Shown here: positions 3,079-62,707 of the stretch, piece by piece
Layout of the letters: every line of letters starts with the position of its first letter
How positions within the stretch are numbered: position 1 is the stretch's first letter
Assembly: GCA_963839025.1 (NCBI GenBank)
Contig: CAWITT010000014.1
Coordinates: forward strand, 134,175 to 198,174
Direction of reading: 5' to 3'
DNA length: 64,000 bases
DNA from: an uncultured Acidobacteriaceae bacterium
GTDB lineage: Bacteria > Acidobacteriota > Terriglobia > Terriglobales > Acidobacteriaceae
Notes under the pieces: model-generated
The model's input: only the letters and a program-made list of their open reading frames with translations
Told to the model about the DNA's origin: nothing
The model's database searches: none
Translations under genes and position numbers: made by a program

Positions 3079-4214
3079 TCGCCTTAATAGCGCTGGCCTT
3101 CTGCTGCTCCACCATCCCGGCGGTGTTGTGGGTCTGGAACATGCTGCTATACCGCGAGCCTGAGGCCGGTGGTTGCGGGGAGACTGGCGTTTGTGTTTTG
3201 CCGGGTTCTGTGTCGGTTCTCATTCCTGCCCGCAATGAAGAGGCTGCCATTGGCCAGTCGATCGCCAGCCTGCTTGCCTCCCGTGGAGTCGCGATCGAGA
3301 TCACGGTGCTTGACGACGGATCGACGGATCGAACCGCGGAAATAGTCCGCGGCTTTGCGGCCCAGGATGCGCGCGTGCATCTCAGGTCTTCGCGTCCGCT
3401 GCCGCGCGGCTGGAACGGTAAGCAGCACGCCTGCTATGAACTCGCAGCGCTGGCCGGCGGGGAGGTCCTCTGTTTTCTTGATGCCGATGTGCGTCTGGAG
3501 CCTGATGCGCTTGCCCGTATGGCCGCGTTTTTGGTCCGTTCCGGCTCTGATCTGGTGAGCGGATTTCCCCGCCAGGAAACGGAGACCACACTGGAGTGGC
3601 TGCTATTGCCGATGATTCACTTTGTGCTGCTGTCGTATCTGCCGCTAGCCGGGATGCGCGCGTTGTCTACGCCGGGGCTCGCGGCGGGCTGTGGCCAGTT
3701 CCTCATGGTGCGCCGCGATGCTTACCGCAAGTGCGGCGGGCACGGGCAGATCCGCACCACCATGCACGATGGGCTGTTGCTGCCGCAACTCTTCCGCCGC
3801 CACGGTCTGCGCACGGATATTGCCGACCTGACTCATCTGGCCACGTGCCGCATGTATCACAACGCGGCGGAGGTTTGGCGCGGCTTGGCGAAGAATGCCA
3901 CGGAGGGTATGGCTGCGCCGGCCCGGATCCTGCCTTTTACGCTGCTGCTGTTTTGTGGCCAGGTGCTTCCGTTGCTGCTGTTGGTGGCGCCTGTGGCGTA
4001 CAGCACGCGGGAACGGTCATTTATCCTGGCCGCGGTCGCGGCGTCTTTTTTGCCTCGACTTTTTTCGGTCTGGAAATATCGCCAGCCTCTCATGAGCGCT
4101 CTGCTGCATCCGTTGGGCGTCACTCTCTTGCTCATGCTTCAGTGGTATGCCTTGGTGGGCAAAATTGCGGGCCAGCGCGTCACCTGGAAAGAACGTGCCT
4201 ATCGCATGGGTTGA
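3075..4214 (+). CDS. Family 2 glycosyltransferase with membrane-spanning C-terminal half
   Basis: GT-A blocks VSVLIPARNEE, VLDDGSTDRT and FLDADV (DxD). The C-terminal half is hydrophobic. The ATGA start/stop overlaps the acyltransferase gene. Confidence 0.8.
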   Translation: MIALIALAFCCSTIPAVLWVWNMLLYREPEAGGCGETGVCVLPGSVSVLIPARNEEAAIGQSIASLLASRGVAIEITVLDDGSTDRTAEIVRGFAAQDARVHLRSSRPLPRGWNGKQHACYELAALAGGEVLCFLDADVRLEPDALARMAAFLVRSGSDLVSGFPRQETETTLEWLLLPMIHFVLLSYLPLAGMRALSTPGLAAGCGQFLMVRRDAYRKCGGHGQIRTTMHDGLLLPQLFRRHGLRTDIADLTHLATCRMYHNAAEVWRGLAKNATEGMAAPARILPFTLLLFCGQVLPLLLLVAPVAYSTRERSFILAAVAASFLPRLFSVWKYRQPLMSALLHPLGVTLLLMLQWYALVGKIAGQRVTWKERAYRMG

Positions 4215-4250
4215 TGCAACCGTTGCTTTCGGGGGAGCATTTCAATTTCT

Positions 4251-4862
4251 ATGGGCCAGTTTTGTCTTTTCATCTTGCTTGCCGTCCCAATGATTTCTGC
4301 CGCAGAATCCGGTAGCTTCGCGCAACGCCTCGCTGAGGCGCGCAAGGATTATTTTTCCGATTTGCAGGGAGATCGAGCCGCCGGGGTCAAGGCTCGCGCA
4401 AGCTTTGCGGCACTGTCGAGCGATTACCCGGGGAACCCGGTGGTCGATGCCTACAGCGGCAGCCTGCAGCTTCTCGATGCTGCCCGCAGCTGGGCGGTGT
4501 GGGAAAAGGGCAGGCTCGCCAATGAAGGTCTGAGCAAGATGGATGAGGCGGTCAATCGTGCCCCGGACGATTTGGAAGCGCGTTTCATTCGCGCTGCGTC
4601 CACTTGGCATTTGCCGTTTTTCTACAAGCGCCGGGACCAGTCCGCGAGCGACTTTGCCTTGATCGCGCCGCGGGCGGAGGAAGCAGTGGCGAAGGGGACC
4701 CTCCCGCCGGAGCTGGCTGCGGCCGCCCTTGATTATTACGGCCAGGTACTGATCGGTCAAAGTGACAGTCACGGTGCCAAACAAGCCTTCGAGGCCGCCG
4801 TGCGCATTGACGAGACGAGTCCGGGCGGCCGTGATGCATTGAAGCGCCTGCGCACCGAGTAG
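4251..4862 (+). CDS. Exported helical protein of unknown function
   Basis: 203-aa ORF with a signal-like N-terminus MGQFCLFILLAVPMISAAES and an Ala/Leu/Arg-rich helical composition. No family recognised. Confidence 0.55.
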   Translation: MGQFCLFILLAVPMISAAESGSFAQRLAEARKDYFSDLQGDRAAGVKARASFAALSSDYPGNPVVDAYSGSLQLLDAARSWAVWEKGRLANEGLSKMDEAVNRAPDDLEARFIRAASTWHLPFFYKRRDQSASDFALIAPRAEEAVAKGTLPPELAAAALDYYGQVLIGQSDSHGAKQAFEAAVRIDETSPGGRDALKRLRTE

Positions 4863-4870
4863 CAGACCGT

Positions 4871-5049
4871 CTGACCAACCGCGATCTCGACGGGTGCCCT
4901 ATGTTCGCACCAGCGTACGTGGGCCGATTATGAATTCTTCGAATGCTTTTACTCAACGTGCAGAAGCGTTCGATGGGCTTCGCCCGTCTTTTTCAGCCCA
5001 CGTACGCTGGTGCGAACATAGGGCACCCGTCAAGATCGCGGTTGGTCAG
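4871..5049 (+). repeat. Family-1 long-stem palindromic intergenic element, copy A
   Basis: Left arm CTGACCAACCGCGATCTCGACGGGTGCCCTATGTTCGCACCAGCGTACGTGGGCCGA pairs with right arm 4993-5049. The asymmetric core TTATGAATTCTTCGAATGC...GATGGGCTTCGCCCGTCTTTTTC sets the orientation. Confidence 0.9.
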
Positions 5050-5082: not shown

Positions 5083-7239
5083 TTACTCCAGCGGCTTGCG
5101 GGCGAAGTAGTACAGTGACCCGGCCAGCAGCACAAACATCAGCACCGAAACCCCGTCATGGTGCAGGGGATTACTCGCCGGCAACAACAACACATCCTCT
5201 TTACCGGTCGCGGTTTCATAAAGTTTCAGCGCGACACCCATCAGCCCTACAATGCCGCCGGCCGCGATGAGCCCGCTGGCATAGAGCGACCCCGGACTCA
5301 CTTCGCTGTCCGCTTTCTCGACGGCACGATCGATCATCCACCGCACGATGCCCCCGGCGAAGATCGCCAGTGTGGTGGCGATCGAGAGGTAGGCGCCGAC
5401 CGCAAACGACAGCGAGCGAACACCCAGGATCTCCACCGCAATCACTAGAAACACGCCCAGCAGCACTAATCCCCAGGGCAGCTTGCGGCCCAGGATCCCA
5501 TTCACCACCGTAGCCATCAGGCGCGCCTGCGGGGCCGCCGCCTTTTCACTGCCAATACCCTGGATCCACTGCACCTCAATTTGCTGTGTTTGCGGGTTGT
5601 AGAGATATTTGCCATCCGCCAATTCCGCCGAATTCAGCGCGTTGAGCAAAACCAGACCACCACCCGCGCGAGTCTCGACGGTCTTGTCCGCGTGGATGAC
5701 GCGAATCTGCGGCTGGTGAAAATGCTGCTCCTCGACCTGCACCCCGCTGTGAGCGGCAGTCATATCCCATGGCCGCGCGGTCTGGCGGAACTCCGCCAAA
5801 CCCTGGTTCATCAACTGCAGCGTGGCCCCAATGGCCAAAGTCGAGACACAGGCGCCGATGACCAGCGCGATCTGCTGCTTGCGCGGAGTGGCGCCGATCA
5901 AATAGCCGGTCTTGAGATCTTGCGAGGTATCGCCGGCATTGGCCGACGCGATGCATACCACGCCGCCGATGGTGATGGCCAAAGCGCCAAACGCAGGCGC
6001 GGTCCATCCTTCGACCAGGAAAATCGCCGACGTTGCCATGAGCGTGGCGATCGTCATACCGGAGACGGGATTCGAGGAACTGCCGATCAATCCCACGATG
6101 CGCGAGGACACGGTGACAAAAAGAAATCCGAAGAGAGCTACCAGCAGCGAAGCCGCCAGGTTTGCCAGCCCGCTCACCTGCGCCCCGGGTACGGGTTTAA
6201 AGGTCAGGAAAACCCACATCAAAAACACCAGGACCACCGATCCGCCGACCACGACGCCGAACGGAAGATCGTCCTCCGTGCGCAGGGGAGCGCTCTTGAC
6301 GCCGCCGGCTAGGCGCAAATTCCCCATCGCAGCGCGCAATGCACTGAAGATCGTGGGCAGAGTCTTGATCAACGTGATCAGTCCGGATGCCGCCACCGCG
6401 CCCGCTCCCATAGGGCGAATGTAGGAAGCCCACAGATCGCTGGGAGACATCTGGGCAATCGGCTTGGTCCCGGGATAAATTGCCTCGGGGAAGTGAGAAC
6501 CGAAAAAATAAATGGCCGGCATGAGGACCAGCCAGGAGAAGATACCGCCGGCAAAGAGCAACCCGGCAATCTTGGGCCCGATGATGTAGCCCACACCCAA
6601 ATATTCAGGAGTAACATCCGCCCGAATTGCGGAACCCTTCAGCCATTGCGGCTGATAATCCGGTGTCCCCGGCCATGCGCCCAACAGGTTTTCATTCTGG
6701 AACAGGGTGTAGATGCCGCCTAAGCCGAGACCCAGAAAAACGCGGCCAGCGAAAGAACCGCCCCGCTCCCCCGCCAGCAGGACATCGGCGCAGGCGGTCC
6801 CCTCCGGGTAAGTGAGCCGGCCGTGCTCCTTGACGATCAGCTGTTGCCGCAGCGGAATCATGAACAGCACGCCCAGCAACCCACCCAGGAGCGCCAACAC
6901 AAAAATGCGCGAGTACTCGAGATCGAAGCCGAGAAAGATCAAAGCCGGCAAGGTGAAGATCACTCCGGAGGCAATGGACTGCCCCGAATTACCCGTCGTC
7001 TGAACAATGTTGTTTTCCAGAATGGAGGCCCGTCCAAATGCGCGCAGTACGCTGATGGAAAGCACGGCGATGGGTATGGAAGCCCCTACCGTCAGCCCCG
7101 CGCGCAAGCCGACATAGACCGTCACGGCCCCGAAGAGCAGCCCGAAGATACAGCCGAGCACCAGGGCGCGGGTTGTCAGTTCAGGGCGATTCTCGGTGGC
7201 CGAGACGAATGGCTGAAAAGTCGGGGGCGTGTTTTGCAT
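5083..7239 (-). CDS. OPT-family oligopeptide transporter
   Basis: 718-aa polytopic membrane ORF. The N-terminal region RPELTTRALVLGCIFGLLFGAVTVYVGLRAGLTVGASIPIAVLSISVL and the overall architecture are typical of bacterial OPT transporters. Confidence 0.85.
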   Translation of the reverse strand: MQNTPPTFQPFVSATENRPELTTRALVLGCIFGLLFGAVTVYVGLRAGLTVGASIPIAVLSISVLRAFGRASILENNIVQTTGNSGQSIASGVIFTLPALIFLGFDLEYSRIFVLALLGGLLGVLFMIPLRQQLIVKEHGRLTYPEGTACADVLLAGERGGSFAGRVFLGLGLGGIYTLFQNENLLGAWPGTPDYQPQWLKGSAIRADVTPEYLGVGYIIGPKIAGLLFAGGIFSWLVLMPAIYFFGSHFPEAIYPGTKPIAQMSPSDLWASYIRPMGAGAVAASGLITLIKTLPTIFSALRAAMGNLRLAGGVKSAPLRTEDDLPFGVVVGGSVVLVFLMWVFLTFKPVPGAQVSGLANLAASLLVALFGFLFVTVSSRIVGLIGSSSNPVSGMTIATLMATSAIFLVEGWTAPAFGALAITIGGVVCIASANAGDTSQDLKTGYLIGATPRKQQIALVIGACVSTLAIGATLQLMNQGLAEFRQTARPWDMTAAHSGVQVEEQHFHQPQIRVIHADKTVETRAGGGLVLLNALNSAELADGKYLYNPQTQQIEVQWIQGIGSEKAAAPQARLMATVVNGILGRKLPWGLVLLGVFLVIAVEILGVRSLSFAVGAYLSIATTLAIFAGGIVRWMIDRAVEKADSEVSPGSLYASGLIAAGGIVGLMGVALKLYETATGKEDVLLLPASNPLHHDGVSVLMFVLLAGSLYYFARKPLE

Positions 7240-20427: not shown

Positions 20428-20434
20428 GTTTAAA

Positions 20435-20468
20435 GGGCCAAACCACCCTCGACGGGTGCCCCATGTTC
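20435..20468. repeat. Family-1 element, solo (truncated) arm
   Basis: GGGCCAAACCACCCTCGACGGGTGCCCCATGTTC matches the outer plus inner left arm of copies C and D, then diverges. No core or partner arm is present. Confidence 0.75.
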
Positions 20469-26577: not shown

Positions 26578-26633
26578 AGTACTCACCGGCAGGCGGCTTT
26601 GAGTTGAACCAGGCCGCCTGCCGTACGATTGAT

Positions 26634-27893
26634 ATGGAACCTCTTCCTGTCTTGCACGACCGGCCCATCGCGACGACAAAGATCGCCACCGTCGCTCTCC
26701 TCGGAGCATTCGGACCTCCCATTCTGACCGCGGCAAGATCGTTCCGTGATGCGGGTATCAGGGTGGTCGTCCTGTCGACCGCGTACGGTACGCCGTCCGC
26801 ATGGTCGAATGCCATCAGCGTCGCGGAGTGCATCCGGCCCGAGGACTTAGGGACACCCGCGGGTCTCGCGGTGATCATCGACTTTGTTCGCCGGACCGGC
26901 GCCCAGGCTTTGCTGCCGTTCTGGGATACGCAGATGGTATGGCTGGCGGCACACGAAACCTCATTGCCCCAGGGCTGTAAACTCCTCTCCTCGAGCCAGC
27001 AGGCGCTCGAAGTGTTGCTCTCGAAGGATGATCAACTGCGCGTTGCCGAGCGTTGCGGCTTCAACCTTCTGCCCACCTGGAAATTGTCGCAGCAACAGGA
27101 TGTGGGCATGCTCGATCCCGCTGCCTATCCCGTGTGCTTGCGCCCGTCGATCCCGCTCGAGGTGAACCCGACGTTCAAAGTGGAAGTGATGCGTTCGCCC
27201 GCCGAGTTGCATGCTTTCCTTGCAACGCGGACGTGGGGACCGGGTCCTCTGCTCGTGCAGCCTTTTTTGCCTCTTCCCACCGTGGTGATCCACGGGGTCA
27301 GGAGCGAATCGGGCGAGATGATTGCGCTCGAGGCCTTCATTGCCTCTACGAAATTTGAAGGGGTGACGCTGGAGTTGCGGCCATTTCCCATGGACGCCAA
27401 CCTCGCGCTTTGCTGCCGCAAATTTGCCGAAGAGACGGGGATTACCGGTCCATTCCATTTCGAATTGCTTTATTCCGCGGACACCGGAATCTTCTACTAC
27501 CTTGAGATCAACGTGCGTCTCGGAGGCACGACGGACAAGGTTTTCCGCTTGGGTTTTGACGAGCCGCTGCTGGCGCTGGCGGCCTATGGATTCGACGTTC
27601 CGGTAAGGCCTTACCGCGCGCAGGCCGGCCGCGCAGCGGTGAATCGGAGGGCGCTGCTGAAGCATGTATTCTCCGTGGCCAAGGGAAGGCTTTCACCGCT
27701 GGACTATCCGGTCGCCGGCAAGCTGCAACATCTTGGGTTGTCGCTACGGACTTTTCTGTTGGCCGCCGATTCCATCGCCTCGAGCCGCGATTTGCTCGGA
27801 ACGTGGTTCTTCTACGTGGCCCAGCGCCCGCCCGGAGAAGCCTCGCCCCAGACCGAGCCGAACTGGGTGATGCGTCTCCTGCACCATCCCTAG
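26634..27893 (+). CDS. ATP-grasp domain protein (COG3919-like predicted carboligase)
   Basis: Pre-ATP-grasp N-terminus VALLGAFGPPILTAARSFRDAGIRVVVLS and C-terminal block GPFHFELLYSADTGIFYYLEINVRLGG. ATG 26634 is preferred over 26604. Confidence 0.65.
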   Translation: MEPLPVLHDRPIATTKIATVALLGAFGPPILTAARSFRDAGIRVVVLSTAYGTPSAWSNAISVAECIRPEDLGTPAGLAVIIDFVRRTGAQALLPFWDTQMVWLAAHETSLPQGCKLLSSSQQALEVLLSKDDQLRVAERCGFNLLPTWKLSQQQDVGMLDPAAYPVCLRPSIPLEVNPTFKVEVMRSPAELHAFLATRTWGPGPLLVQPFLPLPTVVIHGVRSESGEMIALEAFIASTKFEGVTLELRPFPMDANLALCCRKFAEETGITGPFHFELLYSADTGIFYYLEINVRLGGTTDKVFRLGFDEPLLALAAYGFDVPVRPYRAQAGRAAVNRRALLKHVFSVAKGRLSPLDYPVAGKLQHLGLSLRTFLLAADSIASSRDLLGTWFFYVAQRPPGEASPQTEPNWVMRLLHHP

Positions 27894-27906: not shown

Positions 27907-28130
27907 ATCTATCCCGGAAAACCACACCCGACCAGTAGCAACCTCGACGGGTGCCCCATGTTCGCACCAGCGTACGTGGGCCGAAAAAGACGGGCGAAGC
28001 CCATCAAACGCTGTTAATCATTTCAGTGAAAGCATTTGAAGAATTCATAATCGGCCCACGTACGCTGGTGCGAACATGGGGCACCCATCGAGATTTGCTA
28101 CGAGGTCGGGGGCGGTTCTCCGGGATAGAT
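27907..28130 (-). repeat. Family-1 long-stem palindromic intergenic element, copy B (inverted core)
   Basis: Left arm ATCTATCCCGGAAAACCACACCCGACCAGTAGCAACCTCGACGGGTGCCCC... pairs with right arm ...GGGGCACCCATCGAGATTTGCTACGAGGTCGGGGGCGGTTCTCCGGGATAGAT. The core is the reverse complement of the core in copies A, C and D. Confidence 0.9.
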
Positions 28131-28136
28131 GCTGGG

Positions 28137-30212
28137 TTATTTGGCAGGAACCGACAACTCCTGCAGCAGGAAGGCGTAGTCGAGGGCAATTTCCTTTAGA
28201 TAATCGTAGCGGCCGGAGGCGCCCCCATGCCCCGCGCTCATGTTGGTCTCGAGCAGCAACAGGTTGTCGCCGGTTTTAAGCGTTCGCAGCTTGGCTACAT
28301 ACTTGGCCGGCTCCCAGTACATCACCTGGCTGTCATTGAGCGAGGTCTTCACCAACATGGCTGGATAGGCCTTTGCCTCCAGGTTGTCATAGGGCGAGTA
28401 CTGCAGCATGTAAGCGAATGCCTCTGCCTGGTTGGGATCACCCCACTCCTCGTACTCGGCGATGGTGAGGGGAAGGGTAGCGTCGAGCATGGTGTTCATC
28501 ACATCGACGAAGGGCACATGCGATACGACAGCCCGGTACAGATCGGGCCGCAGGTTGGCCACCGCACCCATCAAAAGTCCGCCGGCGCTCCCGCCTTCCA
28601 TGGCTACGCGGTGTGGGTCTCCGTAGCCCTGGCCCGTGAGGTATTCGGTCACAGCAATAAAATCCGTGAAGGTATTCATCTTGTTCATCAGCCGTCCCGC
28701 ATCGTGCCACGGCTTGCCCATATCGCCTCCCCCGCGAATATGGGCGTAGGCGAGGACAAATCCACGATCGAGCAGGCTCAGCCGATTGGAATTGAAGCCC
28801 ACCGGAAGGGAATACCCATAGGACCCATACCCATACACAAAGAGCGGGTTTGTGCCCGATCCCTTCAGGTCCTTGCGATAGACCAGCGAAACCGGGACCG
28901 CGGTCCCGTCGGGGGCGGTGGCAAACAAACGCTCCGAGCCATAGAGGGAGCGATCGAACCCGCCCGGCACCTCCAGCTCTTTCAACAGCATCGATTGTTC
29001 CGTCGCCACGTCGTATTCGTAGACCGAGGTAGGCGAAACCAGCGATTGGTAGCCATAGCGAAACACCTCGGTTACGAATTGACGGTTGACGTGAGGATGG
29101 GCACTATACGTGGGCTCAGGAAATGCAATCTGCCGCGATGTCTCCTGAAAGCCGCCCTCAGCGTCGAAGAACATCACCCGCAGGTGGGGCAGACCGTTGG
29201 ACCGCTCCACTAACACTGCGAAGGACTGAAAGAGATCCAGCTCCTCCAGCATCACACCCTCGCGATGGGGGATCACCTCGCGCCAAAAAGCGCGGCCCGG
29301 AGTCGCCACGGGGGCAGTCACCACGCGGAAGGTTCTTGCGGTGTCGTTCACCCTCAAGTACCACAGCCCCTCCCGGTGGTCGGCATAGTACTCGATGTTC
29401 TCGCGCCGCGGTTCGATTAACGTCCAGCTCCCCTGGGGGTCGTCCGCGGGTAGAAACTGCTCTTCGCTGGTGGTGTGGCTGGCGCTTTCGAGCACGATGT
29501 ATTGGTCGTCGCGGGTGCGGCCGGCGCCAATATTGAAGCGCTCATCTGCCTCCTCATAAACCAGGACGTCCTCCGCCTGCGAAGCCCCCAGGAAGTGGCG
29601 AAAGAACTGAAACTGGCGCTTGGTGGCCTCATCTTCCACGGTGTAGAAAATCGTCCGGTTATCGGCCGCCCAAACCACGGAGCCAACCCTCTGGGCCTCG
29701 TCCGCCAGCACTTCGCCCGTACGGAGGTCTTTGATGTGCAAGGTATATTGGCGGAACCCTGTGGTGTCAGTGGAATAGGCCAGCAAGTTGCCATCATCCG
29801 AGACGGTGAGCGCGCCCAACGCCAGGAATTCATGCCCCGCCGCCATTTGATTCATGTCGAGCATGATCTCTTCGCCGGCATCGAGAGAGCCGCGTTTGCG
29901 ACAGTAGATGGGATACTGCGCCCCCTGCTCGGTGCGCGAGTAGTAGAAATAGTCCCCGTCGCGAAAGGGCACCGAGATGTCGGTCTCTTTGATGTGGCTG
30001 ATCATTTCGGCGTAGAGCTTGGCTTGAAGCTCTTCCGTAGGCTTCATGACAGCCCGCGTGTAGGCATTCTCCTGTTCCAGGAACGCAATTACCTCCGGGC
30101 TATCCTTTTCCCGCAGCCACGCGTAGTCGTCGATCAAGCGCTGACCGTGGATGGTGTTGACAGTTTCGTGACGGCGGGCAATCGGAGGTTGTACAACCAC
30201 GGGCGAAGTCAT
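28137..30212 (-). CDS. ptrB: Oligopeptidase B (S9A prolyl-oligopeptidase family)
   Basis: 691 aa. N-terminus HGQRLIDDYAWLREKDSPEV, a propeller region, and catalytic Ser block AMEGGSAGGLLMG followed by SPYDN. Confidence 0.9.
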   Translation of the reverse strand: MTSPVVVQPPIARRHETVNTIHGQRLIDDYAWLREKDSPEVIAFLEQENAYTRAVMKPTEELQAKLYAEMISHIKETDISVPFRDGDYFYYSRTEQGAQYPIYCRKRGSLDAGEEIMLDMNQMAAGHEFLALGALTVSDDGNLLAYSTDTTGFRQYTLHIKDLRTGEVLADEAQRVGSVVWAADNRTIFYTVEDEATKRQFQFFRHFLGASQAEDVLVYEEADERFNIGAGRTRDDQYIVLESASHTTSEEQFLPADDPQGSWTLIEPRRENIEYYADHREGLWYLRVNDTARTFRVVTAPVATPGRAFWREVIPHREGVMLEELDLFQSFAVLVERSNGLPHLRVMFFDAEGGFQETSRQIAFPEPTYSAHPHVNRQFVTEVFRYGYQSLVSPTSVYEYDVATEQSMLLKELEVPGGFDRSLYGSERLFATAPDGTAVPVSLVYRKDLKGSGTNPLFVYGYGSYGYSLPVGFNSNRLSLLDRGFVLAYAHIRGGGDMGKPWHDAGRLMNKMNTFTDFIAVTEYLTGQGYGDPHRVAMEGGSAGGLLMGAVANLRPDLYRAVVSHVPFVDVMNTMLDATLPLTIAEYEEWGDPNQAEAFAYMLQYSPYDNLEAKAYPAMLVKTSLNDSQVMYWEPAKYVAKLRTLKTGDNLLLLETNMSAGHGGASGRYDYLKEIALDYAFLLQELSVPAK

Positions 30213-37600: not shown

Positions 37601-38216
37601 ACCACAGATTGTGGGCCGTGCGCATGCCGTTAAAGCTGATGTTCGCGTCGCCGCCCATCGGCGTGGGCACTTGAAAATCCGTCTGCAGGCTAGCCGCGCC
37701 TGGGGTAAGGTTCGCCAGCGAGTAGAGACTGCGGCCATTCGACTCCAACTGGGTGATCTGCTTGCCGGTGATCACATCGCTCACTTCACCCGACTCGGTT
37801 TGCAGCTTTACGTCGGGAATCGCCACGGTCACGGTTTCTTGCGCCTGCCCGACCTTGAGTGTGAAATCGATCCGCAGACGATCACCCACATTGAGCACCA
37901 GGCCATCCTTGTCCTCAACGCTGAACCCGCTGGACTGGGCTTTCAGGTTAAAGACACCGATGGGAAGGTCAGCCAACACATATTGGCCGGCATCATTGGT
38001 GGTGGCTGAGCGTGCTAAGCCGGTGGAGACAGCGATTGCGGTCACAGTTGCATTAGGAACTACCGCTCCGACCGGATCGGTAACGGTCCCGACAACTGTC
38101 GCCTGCTGCGCCGAAGCTGCAAAGGGGAAGGCGATCAACCCCAGGGTGAGAGTGATGAGGCGTGTTCTCAGCGTGTTTCCTGGGAAAAACGCACTTCTGG
38201 CCACCGAATTCTCCAT
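34656..38216 (-). CDS. Large TonB-dependent receptor with CarboxypepD_reg-like domain
   Basis: 1186 aa. Signal peptide, then ATVVGTVTDPVGAVVPNATVTAIAVSTGLARSATTNDAGQYVLADLPIGVF, plug and barrel sequence, and C-terminal FGAKIIW. Confidence 0.85.
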   Translation of the reverse strand: MENSVARSAFFPGNTLRTRLITLTLGLIAFPFAASAQQATVVGTVTDPVGAVVPNATVTAIAVSTGLARSATTNDAGQYVLADLPIGVFNLKAQSSGFSVEDKDGLVLNVGDRLRIDFTLKVGQAQETVTVAIPDVKLQTESGEVSDVITGKQITQLESNGRSLYSLANLTPGAASLQTDFQVPTPMGGDANISFNGMRTAHNLWLLDGGEIDDRGGGGTAVVMPSEDAIAEFRQLTSNYTAEYGLSSAATISSVIKSGTRNFHASGWWFGRNDAFDARNYFNPQYNANGTTNKVAKLRFNTWGFNAGGPIIFKHVDNPKTFFFYNMEWRSLIQGNNFNVGVPFASTYGGNLAQALSSGFVPAGGVHAPYACQVSATVVAQFAGAGQALSGCTNGAPDSTKAVAFNNNTIPATLLDPNAQNLLKAGIFPAPNSGARFVGPANAPTNVREELVRIDHTFSDKFSIFGHWISEQVSQTDLPTRWSSSNVPTVGDTFGNPSYSAVIGATYAISRNLLNETRFTYGGNRINMVPIGLSTLPSGFNSNRIFNGQTNIIPIIGLTQLTGATFSNNWNPWINKADSYGITDSIAWTKGSHQIKVGGSWLYFLKAQPLQVSTQGNFGFNGSFTGYDFADFLLGYAQTYSEAALKDTRHWNSKSYALFVQDDWRATPRLTLNLGLRWDGVPHTYEANGQMSNFYPNLYNPGATPTFAAGNGQIAPTSAGLGTSPNPILAGYQFYLNGIGIPGITPGVGKGLVANHWLAFGPRVGFAYDLTGGGKNIVRGGFGIMYERIQGNDMYQAGANVPFSSSATLNNVSLSNPKLNVQNGTLITAPPLPIVVPTITQLNSNRYQLPVSYQYSLGFQRALASRSVLSLAYVGNVQHFQSDAVNTNLPPYSQLASLSVNGGPYNTLLPYPGYHAILTDQDEANGSYNSLQIELHSNLRNGLQLQAAYTFSRAIDTSTGTGGDGFDLDSVSNPYVGWTYDRGPSVFDRTHVAFVNFIYDVPLFRNSQNRFMKSTLGGWQASGIVTAESGAPVNLGVSGSTVCSFVPNCAVRPNLTGNISYPKSRTTLSSGNNSKLWFNPSVFSVAPVSAGSSVATFGNLGHDALRGPGRDNWNLALFKNFALYEQSRIELRAESYNVWNHTQFSANTVGGGASNGIGNSLNGTDFGKFSSAYDPRVFQFGAKIIW

Positions 38217-38275
38217 AAGAATAGCTACCTCGCTGTATCGACCGTGAATTCGATTTTCCGGTTCGTGCAGAAAAT

Positions 38276-38289
38276 CGTTAACGTTAACG
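38276..38289. promoter_or_regulatory. Candidate LacI-family operator upstream of the TonB-dependent receptor
   Basis: Perfect 14-bp palindrome CGTTAACGTTAACG with a central CG, 60 nt upstream of the receptor start and just downstream of the lacI-family gene. It shares the core TAACGTTA with the site at 39542. Confidence 0.55.
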
Positions 38290-38365
38290 GTGCAAAAAGG
38301 GTTTTTACTTAGGGCACAGCACGATTGTCAAGAGGAAATTTGTTTTGCTGATAAATGCGGGCTTG

Positions 38366-39466
38366 TCAGGGAAGGGCAAGAGTCTTCAGAGCGGAGTCGT
38401 GCAATTTTGCATCAGCCAACCTGATTTCGCGGAAGAGACTGAGATTGGACGACATGACGACTCCCGGACTGAGCCGGACCGTAGGCGGCATGGGCGTCCC
38501 GCTGATGAGGTGATCGGATAGCTGGCGCACCGCGATCTGGCCTTGGCGATGCGGCTGTTGATAGATAGAGGCGGTAATGGTGCCCTTTTGAAAGTAAGGC
38601 GCCATTTCGGGGAAGAGATCCGTGGTGATCAGCTTGACCTTACCGGCCAGGCCATGCGCTCCGAGTGCGCGGCACACGGGAAGGCAGTTCACGGTGTTCA
38701 CATAGAGGCCGGCGAGCGTCGGCACGCGGCGAAGCAGCTCATAGGTTTTCTGAAAACTTTCGTCTTCGTCCTCATGGCCCTCGAGAACCTGCACGATTTT
38801 TCCTCCGGCGCAATGCTGGGGAAAGGCGGTAGAGAAACCATCGGTCTTGCGGAAATGATCTTCTGTTTCGAGCATGCCCGCGACCACGGCGACCTTGGCC
38901 CCCGGGGCGACAAACTTGCCCATCAACTCACCCGCCAGGCAGCCGTTCAACCTGGGCTCAACATAGACGACGCTCGAGCGCCGGCTTTCCGGAGCATCGG
39001 TAGAGACGCAGACCACGCGGACACCGCGCTCTTCCGCTTCGTCCACGAGAGGTTGCAGCCCCTTCGGATTGCCGGCGGTTAAGACAATACCCTTGACTCC
39101 GTTTTGGATGAGTTCCTGAAAGGCGTCGGTATCGTGCTCGCCCAGCACCCGAACAGGACGGCTGACGATGCGTACGCCCAGGTGGGCGGCCCGCTTGGCT
39201 TCGTCCAGTACCCCGCTCCACAGCTGGTCATAGAAGAAGTGGATTTCCCGGGGAATGCACACCCCGATGGAAACGTCTTCGCGGGTTCCCGATAACGCTC
39301 GTGCTGCCAGGTTCGGTGTGTAGCCGATTTGCCGGGCCACCTGCAGGATGCGGTGGCGGGTTTGATCGTTGATGCCGCCGCGCCCGTGGAGCGCCCGATC
39401 CACCGTGCCGATGGAGACGCCGGCCAACTCCGCGATCAAGCGAATTCCACCCCGTTCCTTCTTCAA
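38366..39466 (-). CDS. LacI-family transcriptional regulator
   Basis: HTH IRLIAELAGVSIGTVDRALHGRG at the N-terminus and a periplasmic-binding-protein-like sugar-binding core. 366 aa. Confidence 0.9.
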   Translation of the reverse strand: MKKERGGIRLIAELAGVSIGTVDRALHGRGGINDQTRHRILQVARQIGYTPNLAARALSGTREDVSIGVCIPREIHFFYDQLWSGVLDEAKRAAHLGVRIVSRPVRVLGEHDTDAFQELIQNGVKGIVLTAGNPKGLQPLVDEAEERGVRVVCVSTDAPESRRSSVVYVEPRLNGCLAGELMGKFVAPGAKVAVVAGMLETEDHFRKTDGFSTAFPQHCAGGKIVQVLEGHEDEDESFQKTYELLRRVPTLAGLYVNTVNCLPVCRALGAHGLAGKVKLITTDLFPEMAPYFQKGTITASIYQQPHRQGQIAVRQLSDHLISGTPMPPTVRLSPGVVMSSNLSLFREIRLADAKLHDSALKTLALP

Positions 39467-39541
39467 ACGCGGGTCCTCAACGGTGGCAACGATCTTCGCT
39501 ATTATTTCACAATATGGAAAAGCAAAGTCTTTTCCGTGTAC

Positions 39542-39717: not shown

Positions 39718-39856
39718 GAGTCCCGAAGGGACGGTTGAACTTAGCCCAGGACGCAGTCCTGGGTAAATTCGAAAACATGATCCAGTCCCGCAGGGACTGG
39801 CTGAAAGGCGCCCAGGACGCTGTCTTAGGCAATTTTCAGCCATCCCTGCGGGACTC
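39718..39856 (+). repeat. Family-2 hairpin-rich intergenic repeat, copy 1
   Basis: GAGTCCCGAAGGGACGG...CCCAGGACGCAGTCCTGGG...AGTCCCGCAGGGACT...CCCTGCGGGACTC. The first 73 nt are identical to 48135-48207, and the ends are inverted repeats. Confidence 0.85.
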
Positions 39857-42489: not shown

Positions 42490-42736
42490 GGCGCCAAAGT
42501 GTCCGTGCGAGAACCCGAATCGAAGGACCAAACCAACCTCGATGGGTGCCCCATGTTCGCACCAGCGTACGTGGGCCGAATATGAATTCTTCGAATGCTT
42601 TTACTCAAGGAATAGACGTATTGGAAGGGCTTCACCCGTCTTTTTCGGCCCACGTACGCTGGTGCGAACATGGGGCACCCGTCGAGGTTTGTTTGGCCTT
42701 CAGATGCGGTTCTCGCGCGGACTCTTTCGCCTCGCC
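42490..42736 (+). repeat. Family-1 long-stem palindromic intergenic element, copy C (longest)
   Basis: Core palindrome 42505-42717 (GTGCGAGAACCCGAATCGAAGGACCAAACCAACCTCGATGGGTGCCCC... / ...GGGGCACCCGTCGAGGTTTGTTTGGCCTTCAGATGCGGTTCTCGCGC). Complementarity continues imperfectly out to GGCGCCAAAGTGTCC / GGACTCTTTCGCCTCGCC. Confidence 0.85.
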
Positions 42737-47258: not shown

Positions 47259-48088
47259 GTGAGCAAACGCCTGCGGAAAAACCGGCCAACAAGCGCGAAG
47301 CCGCGGAAAGCGCCTCGCCCTACAGCATCAGCGTGGGGGCGGTATACGACGGCCCACTGGACCTGCTGCTGGACCTTATCCGCAAGCAGGATATAGACAT
47401 TTACGACATTCCCATCGGCAGGATCACGGCCCAGTTCCTGTCCTACGTGGAGGGTTTGAAGCAAACCGAGGTGGATGCCGCCGCGGATTTCATTTACGTA
47501 GCCTCGCTGCTGATCCACATCAAGAGCCGCATGCTGCTGCCCCGCACCCCGGCGGATGGCGTCCAGGGGGACCAGGAAGATCCCCGGCGGGAACTGGTGG
47601 AGCGGCTGCTGGAGCACGAGCGATTCAAGAATGCGGCCCAGATGCTGCTGCAGAAGCAGCAGATAGAAGCTGCCACCTGGACCAATCCCGCGATACGGCA
47701 ATTCCGCCTCGAAGGCGGAGACGAGCCAGAGATCGCAGCCGACACCGTTGACTTGGTAAGGGTCTTCCGGGAGATTCTGGAGCGGGCGCGTCAGAGGCCG
47801 GTCCTGGACGTGGACGAGGACGCCGTAACCGTCTCCCAGATGCTTGATTTCGTACGTCGGCGGCTGACCATGGAAGATCGGCCGGTGTCTCTGAGCAGCC
47901 TGCTGAGGAATACCCGCTCGGAGCGCGCGCTCATCTGCATGTTTCTGGCTCTGCTGGAGTTAGTGCGCCTGCAGGCAGTACTGCTGCGTCAAGAGGCCAA
48001 TTTCGGCGAGGTCTACATCAAGAAGCACGCCTCGTTCGAGTCCGTCGTCAACCAGGGCCTGATCCAAGCAACAGACGACTGGCGTTAA
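47255..48088 (+). CDS. scpA: Segregation and condensation protein A
   Basis: VYDGPLDLLLDLIRKQDIDIYDIPIGRITAQFLSY and the C-terminal ALICMFLALLELVRLQAVLL. The ATGA start overlaps the trpS stop. Confidence 0.9.
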   Translation: MSEQTPAEKPANKREAAESASPYSISVGAVYDGPLDLLLDLIRKQDIDIYDIPIGRITAQFLSYVEGLKQTEVDAAADFIYVASLLIHIKSRMLLPRTPADGVQGDQEDPRRELVERLLEHERFKNAAQMLLQKQQIEAATWTNPAIRQFRLEGGDEPEIAADTVDLVRVFREILERARQRPVLDVDEDAVTVSQMLDFVRRRLTMEDRPVSLSSLLRNTRSERALICMFLALLELVRLQAVLLRQEANFGEVYIKKHASFESVVNQGLIQATDDWR

Positions 48089-48134
48089 CTTCTTCGGTCG
48101 AAGTACATGGGCGCCCGCTGTTGCGCTGCTACGA

Positions 48135-48268
48135 GAGTCCCGAAGGGACGGTTGAACTTAGCCCAGGACGCAGTCCTGGGTAAATTCGAAAACATGATCC
48201 AGTCCCGTAGGGTGGGATCACCCAGGACTGGCGTCCTGGGCTATTTTCAGGCCGTCCCTGCGGGACTC
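48135..48268 (+). repeat. Family-2 hairpin-rich intergenic repeat, copy 2
   Basis: Same 73-nt 5' part as copy 1, then a diverged second half ...CCCAGGACTGGCGTCCTGGGCTATTTTCAGGCCGTCCCTGCGGGACTC. The ends GAGTCCCGAAGGGACGG / CCGTCCCTGCGGGACTC are inverted. Confidence 0.85.
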
Positions 48269-62523: not shown

Positions 62524-62707
62524 TTGAGGACCAAACAAAACCTGACGGGTGTCCCATGTTCGCACCAGCGTACGTGGGCCGATCATGAGTCCTTCGAATG
62601 CTTTCACTCAAGGATTGAAATCGTTTGATGGGCTTCGCCCGTCTTTTTCGGCCCACGTACGCTGGTGCGAACATGGGGCACCCATCAAAATCGTGGTTTG
62701 GCTGAAG
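62524..62707 (+). repeat. Family-1 long-stem palindromic intergenic element, copy D
   Basis: Left arm CTTGAGGACCAAACAAAACCTGACGGGTGTCCCATGTTCGCACCAGCGTACGTGGGCCGA pairs with right arm ...TCGGCCCACGTACGCTGGTGCGAACATGGGGCACCCATCAAAATCGTGGTTTGGCTGAAG. The core is in the same orientation as in A and C. Confidence 0.9.

Follow-up and report, generated by a model that had tools for sequence, protein, structure and literature searches.

The Locus and the Element

In a 64,000-nucleotide stretch of DNA from an uncultured Acidobacteriaceae bacterium (assembly GCA_963839025.1, contig CAWITT010000014.1, positions 134,175 to 198,174), called here the window, a 224-bp palindrome lies between two convergent genes and is one of four full copies (A to D) of the same repeat. 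Copy B, the subject of this report, occupies the 243-bp gap separating the stop codons of a 429-aa open reading frame (ORF) on its left (26604-27893, plus strand) and a prolyl oligopeptidase ORF on its right (28137-30212, minus strand). We put the probability at about 0.8 that the window elements are acidobacterial, non-autonomous REPINs, i.e., inverted doublets of repetitive extragenic palindromes (REPs), linked to REP-associated tyrosine transposases (RAYTs). They are read in this way because their arm is found next to RAYT genes in related genomes and because one hairpin-plus-foot rule runs across the RAYT family. The parts of copy B are as follows.

27907-28130, minus strand: copy B, a full REPIN-type element forming a 224-bp palindrome
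27907-27948, no strand: outer arm on the side of the 429-aa gene, from the inverted-repeat scan and arm alignment
27949-27983, plus strand: inner arm 1, 35 nt, REP-like, with 0 mismatches to GGGTGCCCCATGTTCGCACCAGCGTACGTGGGCCG
27989-28005, minus strand: terminator-like hairpin of the core, GATGGGCTTCGCCCGTC, then TTTTT (27984-27988), in the same direction as the peptidase gene
28022-28051, minus strand: L-part of the core, reading TTATGAATTCTTCAAATGCTTTCACT on the minus strand, a conserved motif that trails "L-type" single arms in other genomes
28052-28086, minus strand: inner arm 2, inverted, with 0 mismatches to GGGTGCCCCATGTTCGCACCAGCGTACGTGGGCCG
28087-28130, no strand: outer arm on the peptidase side, from the inverted-repeat scan and arm alignment

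The 35-nt inner arm is composed of a GGGTGCC tag and the hairpin CCCATGT-TCGC-ACCA-GCGT-ACGTGGG. The window holds eight matches to GGGTGCCCCATGTTCGCACCAGCGTACGTGGGCCG with at most two mismatches, arranged as four inverted pairs; the number expected by chance is 0 (100 dinucleotide-preserving shuffles of the window). A lone inner arm folds as single-stranded DNA (ssDNA) at -10.1 kcal/mol, its internal hairpin of 7+3 bp being imperfect, and the single variable stem pair of the arm keeps pairing (TG 9, CG 8, TA 4, and CC 1 among 22 distinct arms). The whole of copy B folds at -176.3 kcal/mol on the core-sense strand (z = -23) and at -160.2 kcal/mol on the opposite strand.

The spacer between the inner arms measures 68-69 nt in all four copies. 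This core is asymmetric and in large part unpaired, and its conservation is limited to both ends, namely the L-part and the intrinsic-terminator-like hairpin with its T-run, while the middle (about 25 nt) is variable. No sigma-70-like promoter was found in a scan of copy B. A weak outward TTGAGT-18-CATAAT noticed by eye in copies A, C, and D was dropped, as its -35 part falls in the variable core. The remaining members of the family in the window are listed below.

4871-5049, plus strand: copy A, with inner arms at 4892-4926 and 4994-5028 and the terminator at 4972-4988
20433-20468, plus strand: solo remnant, consisting of an outer arm and the initial 15 nt of an inner arm
42490-42736, plus strand: copy C, with inner arms at 42544-42578 and 42646-42680
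62524-62707, plus strand: copy D, with inner arms at 62547-62581 and 62649-62683 and the terminator at 62627-62643

Both inner arms of copy A carry the identical CCCTATG/CATAGGG variant, and the inverted-repeat scan gives its arms as 57 nt long and 96% complementary. The terminator stem of copy C is weakened (GGGCTTCACCC), and the outer arms of copy D pair poorly. With the truncated one, the window contains nine arms, all extragenic. The elements are a dispersed, strictly intergenic, non-coding family of palindromic repeats with no mobilising gene in the window. A first-pass annotation, made by a model from the letters and a list of ORFs, had given the coordinates of the four copies and of the solo arm, and all of them read as described, as do the strictly intergenic location of the copies and the position of copy B in the gap between convergent stop codons. 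It had also called the inner arms and the core almost identical between copies; in the core this applies to the two ends, and the middle varies.

The Arm in Other Acidobacteriaceae Genomes

One genome per species was scanned with the 20-mer core of the arm, which returned at least 48 loci; loci from relatives carry labels beginning with L. Among the matches listed, the arm 20-mer occurs in metagenome-assembled genomes (MAGs) of Acidobacteriaceae only. In the window and the 48 loci together, 67 arms were counted by blastn-short, and these include 11 head-out doublets and 3 tail-to-tail pairs. Most of the 48 loci carry a single arm, followed either by AAAACGATGGGCGAAGCCC, the complement of the core terminator ("R-type"), or by AAnACGAAnTTCTTCGAATGCTTTCAC, the left part of the core ("L-type"). 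None of the 11 two-armed copies has a spacer longer than 201 nt. The inner arm is a unit in its own right and behaves like a REP. The tag conserved at the arm is GGGTGCC / GGGGCACCC, which stands in place of the GTAG/GTGG of other REPs, and the tetranucleotide before GGGTG is variable (among 54 arms, most frequently GGAC 8, GTAG 7, CGAC 5, TGAC 5, GTAC 5, and GTCG 5).

Other repeats were seen near the arm. A second REP type, GGTGCCCCACATCTCGCTCGTTTTTCGCGAGATGTGGGATACC, which has the tag in common, stands some 45 nt upstream of the arm, head-to-tail with it, in L002, L010, L021, L030, L031, L036, L038, and L044, and it is also present upstream of trpD in L141 (40-82). Since this type stands near the arm in several MAGs, several hairpin types with one tag coexist in a genome. 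Another repeat, CCCGAATTTCCTG..GCGGCTTTCCTCATAGAAAGCCGC..CAGGAAATTCGGG, sits exactly in the loop of the terminator hairpin (GGGGCTTC|GCCC) in L033 (2393-2503) and was also found near single arms in L005, L006, L015, L021, L030, and L048, which suggests that it targets the terminator hairpin of the element. In L142 (3560-4975), an IS110-family transposase gene (3938-4975, minus strand) stands beside an arm that is cut right after GGGTGCCCC, and this looks like an insertion of the IS110 type into a REP. IS110 elements that target REPs are known in Pseudomonas.

Association with RAYT Genes

The 48 arm loci were searched by tblastn with the E. coli RayT protein taken from the K-12 record, and two of them matched. 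In L025, the ORF at 1243-1716 (157 aa) scores 99.1 bits against the NCBIfam model REP_Tyr_transpos (NF047646; cutoff 80) and 29.6 bits against Pfam Y1_Tnp, and it contains the motifs HVH and YMHWNP. The stop codon of this RAYT is followed by GGAGGGGCTTCGCCCCCGTCTTTTTC and then by the arm, which is how the window elements end too ("terminator plus right arm"); a second arm with the L-core lies about 116 nt beyond the first. At L014, the orthologous locus, the RAYT is frameshifted and about 74% identical to that of L025 (two aligned segments). A search with the L025 protein yielded many RAYTs at 70-89% identity, and the two that were looked up, L142 (84%) and L143-L149 (78%), adjoin ilvD and show the order terminator, arm, and then arm with L-core. 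In L040, a decayed RAYT pseudogene is followed by the arm.

The arm thus stands directly 3' of a RAYT in five related loci, and in four of them, all adjoining ilvD, the terminator hairpin lies between the gene and the arm. In L025, L014, and L142-L149, the hairpin that comes after the RAYT stop codon is the terminator hairpin of the window core, and ilvD is the neighbour of the RAYT in four RAYT lineages with about 74-100% identity. A RAYT flanked by the same REP is found, in these relatives, in L025, L014, L142, L143-L149, and, as a pseudogene, L040. A RAYT or IS200/IS605-type transposase with matching ends elsewhere in the genome was what the first-pass annotation had proposed to look for, and in relatives there is such a RAYT. 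The elements are placed in the REP/REPIN-RAYT class because related RAYT genes are flanked by the same arm and, at ilvD, by the terminator end of the core as well.

Duplications were noted at two of these loci. The spacer between the RAYT-proximal arms of L014 holds duplicated starts of the downstream gene (ATGCAGCGTAGCTTCGC..) at 6900-7000 and 6740-6775, and in L143 the terminator and the arm are partly duplicated in tandem; both point to local rearrangement around RAYT-proximal arms.

A wider set of 80 metagenomic loci, whose RAYTs are 52-66% identical to the L025 protein, contains no copy of the window arm. Downstream of these distant RAYTs, there are lineage-specific hairpins, for example CCCAGGTCTC..GAGACCTGGGGCACCC, CCCACATCTC..GAGATGTGGGGCACCC, and CCCACCCGAGC..GCTCGGGTGGGGCACCC, ending in one foot, GGGGCACCC. 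A hairpin of at least 7 contiguous pairs with this foot (at most one mismatch) within 260 nt downstream was found at 50 of 76 distant RAYT loci, compared with 6 of 569 control windows. In a second scan, anchored on CCC...GGG, 22 different stem sequences keep the anchor; as the first 8 stem positions are paired by the selection of the hairpins, the informative part of this result is the diversity of the stem sequences. The arm of the window elements (CCCACGTACGC..GCGAACATGGGGCACCC) belongs to this hairpin-plus-foot set.

Occupied and Empty Sites and Inversion of the Core

At the site of copy B, relatives differ in what they carry. In L131-L133 (peptidase 90% identical), the ends of the convergent genes overlap and AATGAT stands in place of 260 bp of the window, i.e., the 224-bp palindrome and 18 bp to its left and right. 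The element is present in L130 (peptidase 96% identical), where both genes end within its outer arms, while L134, an 89% relative with another neighbouring gene, has only a short remnant, cccttgacGGGTGCC. Both convergent genes of L130 gain a C-terminus ending in ...PDE* from CCCGACGAGTAG, read on either strand (4395-4585). At the site of copy C, the near-identical strain L139 has the same element, L140 (an 89% relative) has an unrelated long-palindrome family between the same flanks, without outer arms, and L141 (a 97% relative) has a different REP type with the same foot. The palindrome family of L140 (..CTCTCCACTnCGCTGCGCTnCGGTCGAGATGACA...TGTCATCTCGACCG..AGTGGAGAG..; about 2700-2960, at the sucC-trpD site) was also seen in L136 (about 5180-5290). 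In the region of copy A, the syntenic L033 contains an element whose outer arms belong to another subfamily and whose distance from the gene end is not that of copy A. The family is mobile as judged by site polymorphism, with the copy B site being empty in L131-L133 and occupied in the window and L130, and the copy C site having another occupant in L140. Because the empty and alternative sites lack the outer arms too, sites have or lack the hairpin as one unit, together with its outer arms.

Long inverted repeats around a short non-coding core, dispersed in intergenic DNA and occupying sites that are empty in relatives, are also what a classical miniature inverted-repeat transposable element (MITE) would look like, that is, an internally deleted derivative of an insertion sequence (IS) with a DDE transposase, whose arms are terminal inverted repeats (TIRs) and which moves by cut-and-paste as double-stranded DNA. 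Target-site duplication, however, is absent at all four copies and also when the empty and filled copy B sites are compared. The ends are not sharp, since conservation is highest in the inner arms and fades outward. The 11 doublets all enclose 201 nt or less and none encloses a transposase (within the 48 + 21 loci), the arm is mostly single in other genomes, and the only gene that repeatedly adjoins it is the RAYT. We regard an origin as a classical MITE as very improbable.

Another account holds that only the inner element was inserted, into local palindromes that already existed, such as old terminators, so that the outer arms would be target DNA. Insertion of REPs and of some insertion sequences into palindromes is known (PMC3733652), and the repeat sitting exactly in the terminator-hairpin loop of L033 fits such behaviour. 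The outer arms, on the other hand, are homologous across copies and to the solo arm. Outer arms as old target palindromes are contradicted by the empty copy B site of L131-L133 and by the copy C site of L140, both without outer arms, and we give this account hardly any credence.

The core of L130 is inverted relative to that of the window, with 57 of 68 positions matching in reverse complement and 31 of 68 in the same orientation, while its outer arms are placed as in the window, with AAATCTCGAT towards the peptidase gene. An inverted core between outer arms that have stayed in place indicates that two inverted arms recombine, and such recombination is the simplest reading of the inversion in L130. 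An assembly flip is less likely, because the arms of L130 differ from each other at three positions.

Evolution of the Outer Arms

The outer arms of different copies align on the common backbone ..CGAGAA-CCG...GGCCAAACC-AACCTCGAC, with a mean identity between copies of about 61-66%. They are homologous, being diverged versions of one sequence to which the solo arm also belongs, contrary to the first-pass annotation, in which they differed strongly between copies. Conservation peaks in the inner arms and declines outward. Over the outer 20 nt, the identity of the two arms within a copy is 0.95 in A, 0.75 in B, 0.80 in C, and 0.65 in D. With this low value, the arms of copy D pair no better than arms taken from different copies; the left one resembles copy C and the right one copy A, and copy D is a mismatched heterodimer.

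When the cells of the outer 45 alignment columns were sorted by departure from the consensus, 21 had the same non-consensus state in the two arms, 49 had a change in one arm only, and 12 had changes that disagree between the arms. The coupling of arms within a copy is therefore real yet partial (21 shared cells against 49 + 12 unshared), so that the complementarity of left and right outer arms, which had been proposed for every copy, stands as a tendency and is poor in copy D. In L017, L004, L027, and L028, pairing ends directly beside the inner arm, which restricts the long outer stems to some lineages.

Short-term change can be followed in L139, which is 98.95% identical to the window over 15.5 kb (164 differences, 1.06%). 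The 252 bp of copy C differ at 11 positions (4.4%), namely 6 outer-arm positions, 4 core positions, and 1 inner-arm position; all 6 outer-arm changes are one-sided, with 0 compensated. The inner arms are thus conserved, while the remainder evolves fast and without immediate compensation. The idea of copy-specific, compensated outer arms was overstated. Elsewhere in this comparison, the differences between the window and L139 are concentrated around 38014-39513 and 48014-48263.

These data bear on the view that the element is a host-selected RNA element, either a terminator or insulator or a structured small RNA, in which the palindrome is kept by RNA pairing. The genes around the copies other than B, and around the solo arm, are as follows.

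Copy A: a 203-aa ORF on the left and an OPT transporter gene on the right, convergent
Copy C: sucC on the left and trpD on the right, in a divergent intergenic region
Copy D: a MacB/FtsX-type permease gene on the left and an FtsX-type permease gene on the right, convergent
Solo arm: an ABC-transporter gene on the left and a TonB-dependent receptor gene on the right, in the same direction, the arm beginning 6 nt past the stop codon of the ABC-transporter gene

Three of the four copies thus stand between convergent genes, the core includes a terminator-like hairpin and its T-run, folding is extremely stable, and the core-sense strand of copies B and C folds better and with more G-U pairs, all of which would suit an RNA function. 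The G-U asymmetry between strands is missing in copies A and D, however, and the elements have no Rfam match, only sub-threshold eukaryotic hits. Copy C lies in a divergent promoter region with a weakened terminator stem, core orientation differs at the same site between 96%-identical relatives, and the close relatives L131-L133 have no element at all at the copy B site. Moreover, copy C diverges by 4.4% where 15.5 kb of surrounding sequence diverge by 1.06%, with changes in the core and outer arms of which none is compensated. Selection by the host for an RNA is, in our estimation, improbable as an explanation of the palindrome. A terminator or insulator role is possible as a side effect and leaves the orientation flip, the empty sites, and the promoter position of copy C unexplained.

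An RNA family of a different kind was noticed in the same DNA. The window has three matches above the gathering score to the Acido-Lenti-1 RNA (RF01687), at 39719-39763 (minus strand), 48136-48180 (minus strand), and 48221-48267 (plus strand), two of which sit within a 78-nt direct repeat that is 99% identical (39718-39795 and 48135-48212). By these RNA matches, the window too is acidobacterial.

Classification and Proposed Mechanism

REPs are short, repeated, extragenic, imperfect palindromes, and the arm is a 35-nt sequence of this kind, found 9 times in 64 kb and 67 times over the window and the 48 loci. REPINs consist of inverted REPs with a short spacer that together form a hairpin, as do the 11 head-out doublets and the fold of copy B. 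The elements are a new family within the known REP/REPIN-RAYT class and not a new element type. A search of Rfam, which the first-pass annotation had advised, gave 0 matches to the elements at the gathering score, and the search by E-value returned sub-threshold eukaryotic microRNA and snoRNA models. No match to the element was obtained by blastn against a plasmid collection, and a literature search on the tag and on acidobacterial RAYTs found no description of this family. That the annotation did not recognise a named element agrees with the absence of the family from Rfam; its kind is known, which comes close to the match with a catalogued element that the annotation itself had named as refuting.

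Several points weigh against the REPIN reading. By tblastn, the 64-kb window contains no RAYT, and it has no ilvD either, so the cognate transposase of this genome is deduced from relatives; that the window has no transposase, RAYT, or integrase, as had been claimed, holds for RAYTs, while other transposase and integrase types were not searched exhaustively. The ilvD-linked RAYTs have the arm on the 3' side only, as a tail-to-tail pair, and no arm lies upstream of the RAYT in the 8-kb L025 locus. The canonical 5' GTAG/GTGG of REPs is not conserved at the arm, where the tetranucleotide is variable, and the core is asymmetric and in large part unpaired, whereas REPIN spacers in Pseudomonas are largely palindromic. 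Presence and absence at a site are compatible with insertion and deletion alike; no excision or transposition intermediate was seen, and the core inversion comes from a single metagenomic contig of 4.8 kb.

The sequences themselves show the anatomy of the repeat, the RAYT adjacency in relatives, the hairpin-plus-foot rule, the site polymorphism, and the core inversion. The element consists of two inverted 35-nt acidobacterial REPs with diverged but homologous outer extensions and a 68-nt asymmetric core, whose right half is the terminator hairpin that relatives have between the RAYT and the REP beside it. Spread is probably due to a HUH/Y1 RAYT, single-copy and fixed in the chromosome, elsewhere in the genome, presumably beside ilvD as in relatives. 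On ssDNA, E. coli RAYT reportedly recognises a REP hairpin together with a short, conserved tag. If the acidobacterial RAYT works like E. coli TnpA(REP) and the IS200/IS605 transposases, it would recognise the folded REP hairpin and its tag in the same single-stranded form. RAYT catalysis, an ssDNA intermediate, and selection for foldability are inferred here.

The likeness of the two arms may have three reasons: the whole hairpin would be the copied unit, poorly pairing copies probably cease to propagate, and the arms may recombine with each other, as the core inversion indicates. Arm-to-arm recombination would tend to homogenise the arms and so help to maintain complementarity. It is doubtful that the arms are kept alike mainly by copying or recombination (fold-back, a hairpin-templated RAYT step, or arm-to-arm exchange), rather than by selected double mutations, and that this same process flips the core. 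If true, each element would be a flip-flop unit, and a one-way terminator between convergent genes could switch its orientation within populations. The internal terminator and the stop codons given to neighbouring genes are by-products of insertion, not its purpose.

To our knowledge, REPIN-RAYT systems have been studied almost only in Proteobacteria, and a large system of this type is now seen in Acidobacteriaceae, a family that is abundant in soil but has few genetic tools. Judging from the sequences, the transposase clade appears to read a different tag (GGGTGCC / GGGGCACCC) beside a hairpin stem that varies with the lineage. A lineage series of stems with a constant tag could help to dissect how HUH transposases recognise folded ssDNA. 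The elements provide neighbouring genes with stop codons and terminators and mark variable intergenic hot-spots, and in acidobacterial MAGs their long stems can mislead assembly and gene calling. That the core is inverted between close relatives is direct evidence of recombination between arms and helps to explain the persistence of long palindromes.

Comparison with Known Systems

MITEs such as Correia/NEMIS and ERIC resemble the elements in being short, non-coding intergenic palindromes that can carry terminators or promoters. They differ in having defined TIR ends, a TA duplication (Correia), and no link to Y1 transposases, whereas here there is neither a duplication nor a sharp end. The bacterial interspersed mosaic elements (BIMEs) of E. 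coli, which are mosaics of REPs of the Y and Z types, similarly combine inverted REPs with conserved extra motifs, lie after genes, and have REPs that can supply stop codons. Their sequences are other than those described here, where the hairpins are far longer and GTAG is missing.

Closer in taxonomy are the TIRtrons and TIRYTs, RAYT-like genes with flanking repeats other than GTAG in Acidobacteria (Di Nocera et al. 2013, PMC3733652), and the class 3 TnpA-Y1 proteins, with REP-like structures that have a CnGA foot (Quentin et al. 2018, PMC6006769). As in our system, RAYT-like tyrosine transposase genes of Terriglobus, Granulicella, Acidobacterium, and Koribacter are flanked by non-GTAG repeats, some of which form genomic repeat families. 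Going by the published description, the TIR motif GGGGWSAS of the TIRtrons is not matched exactly by GGGGCACC in the arm, which has C at the W position, and TIRtron genes lie between inverted repeats, where the RAYT described here is flanked on one side only. Class 3 proteins have the Y-motif YV..EQ, and the RAYT described here has Y..NP (YMHWNP).

A REPIN, as described in PMC3116915, is a hairpin made of inverted REPs and the spacer between them; compensatory changes are common, and singlets are remnants. The GI-GIII REPINs of Pseudomonas fluorescens SBW25 (Bertels & Rainey 2011, PMC3116915) share with the acidobacterial elements an extragenic, dispersed distribution, singlets as remnants, and compensatory differences between copies, as well as a cognate RAYT that occupies one fixed place in the chromosome as a single gene, with the same REP beside it, a copy number that is presumed here. 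The acidobacterial elements differ in their tag, which is GGGTGCC(CC) and not GTAG, in their far longer stems (55-95 bp) with fast-evolving outer extensions, and in an asymmetric spacer that carries the terminator of the RAYT 3' flank. Here, too, the REP stands on the 3' side of the RAYT only, in a tail-to-tail pair, and the core is also found inverted.

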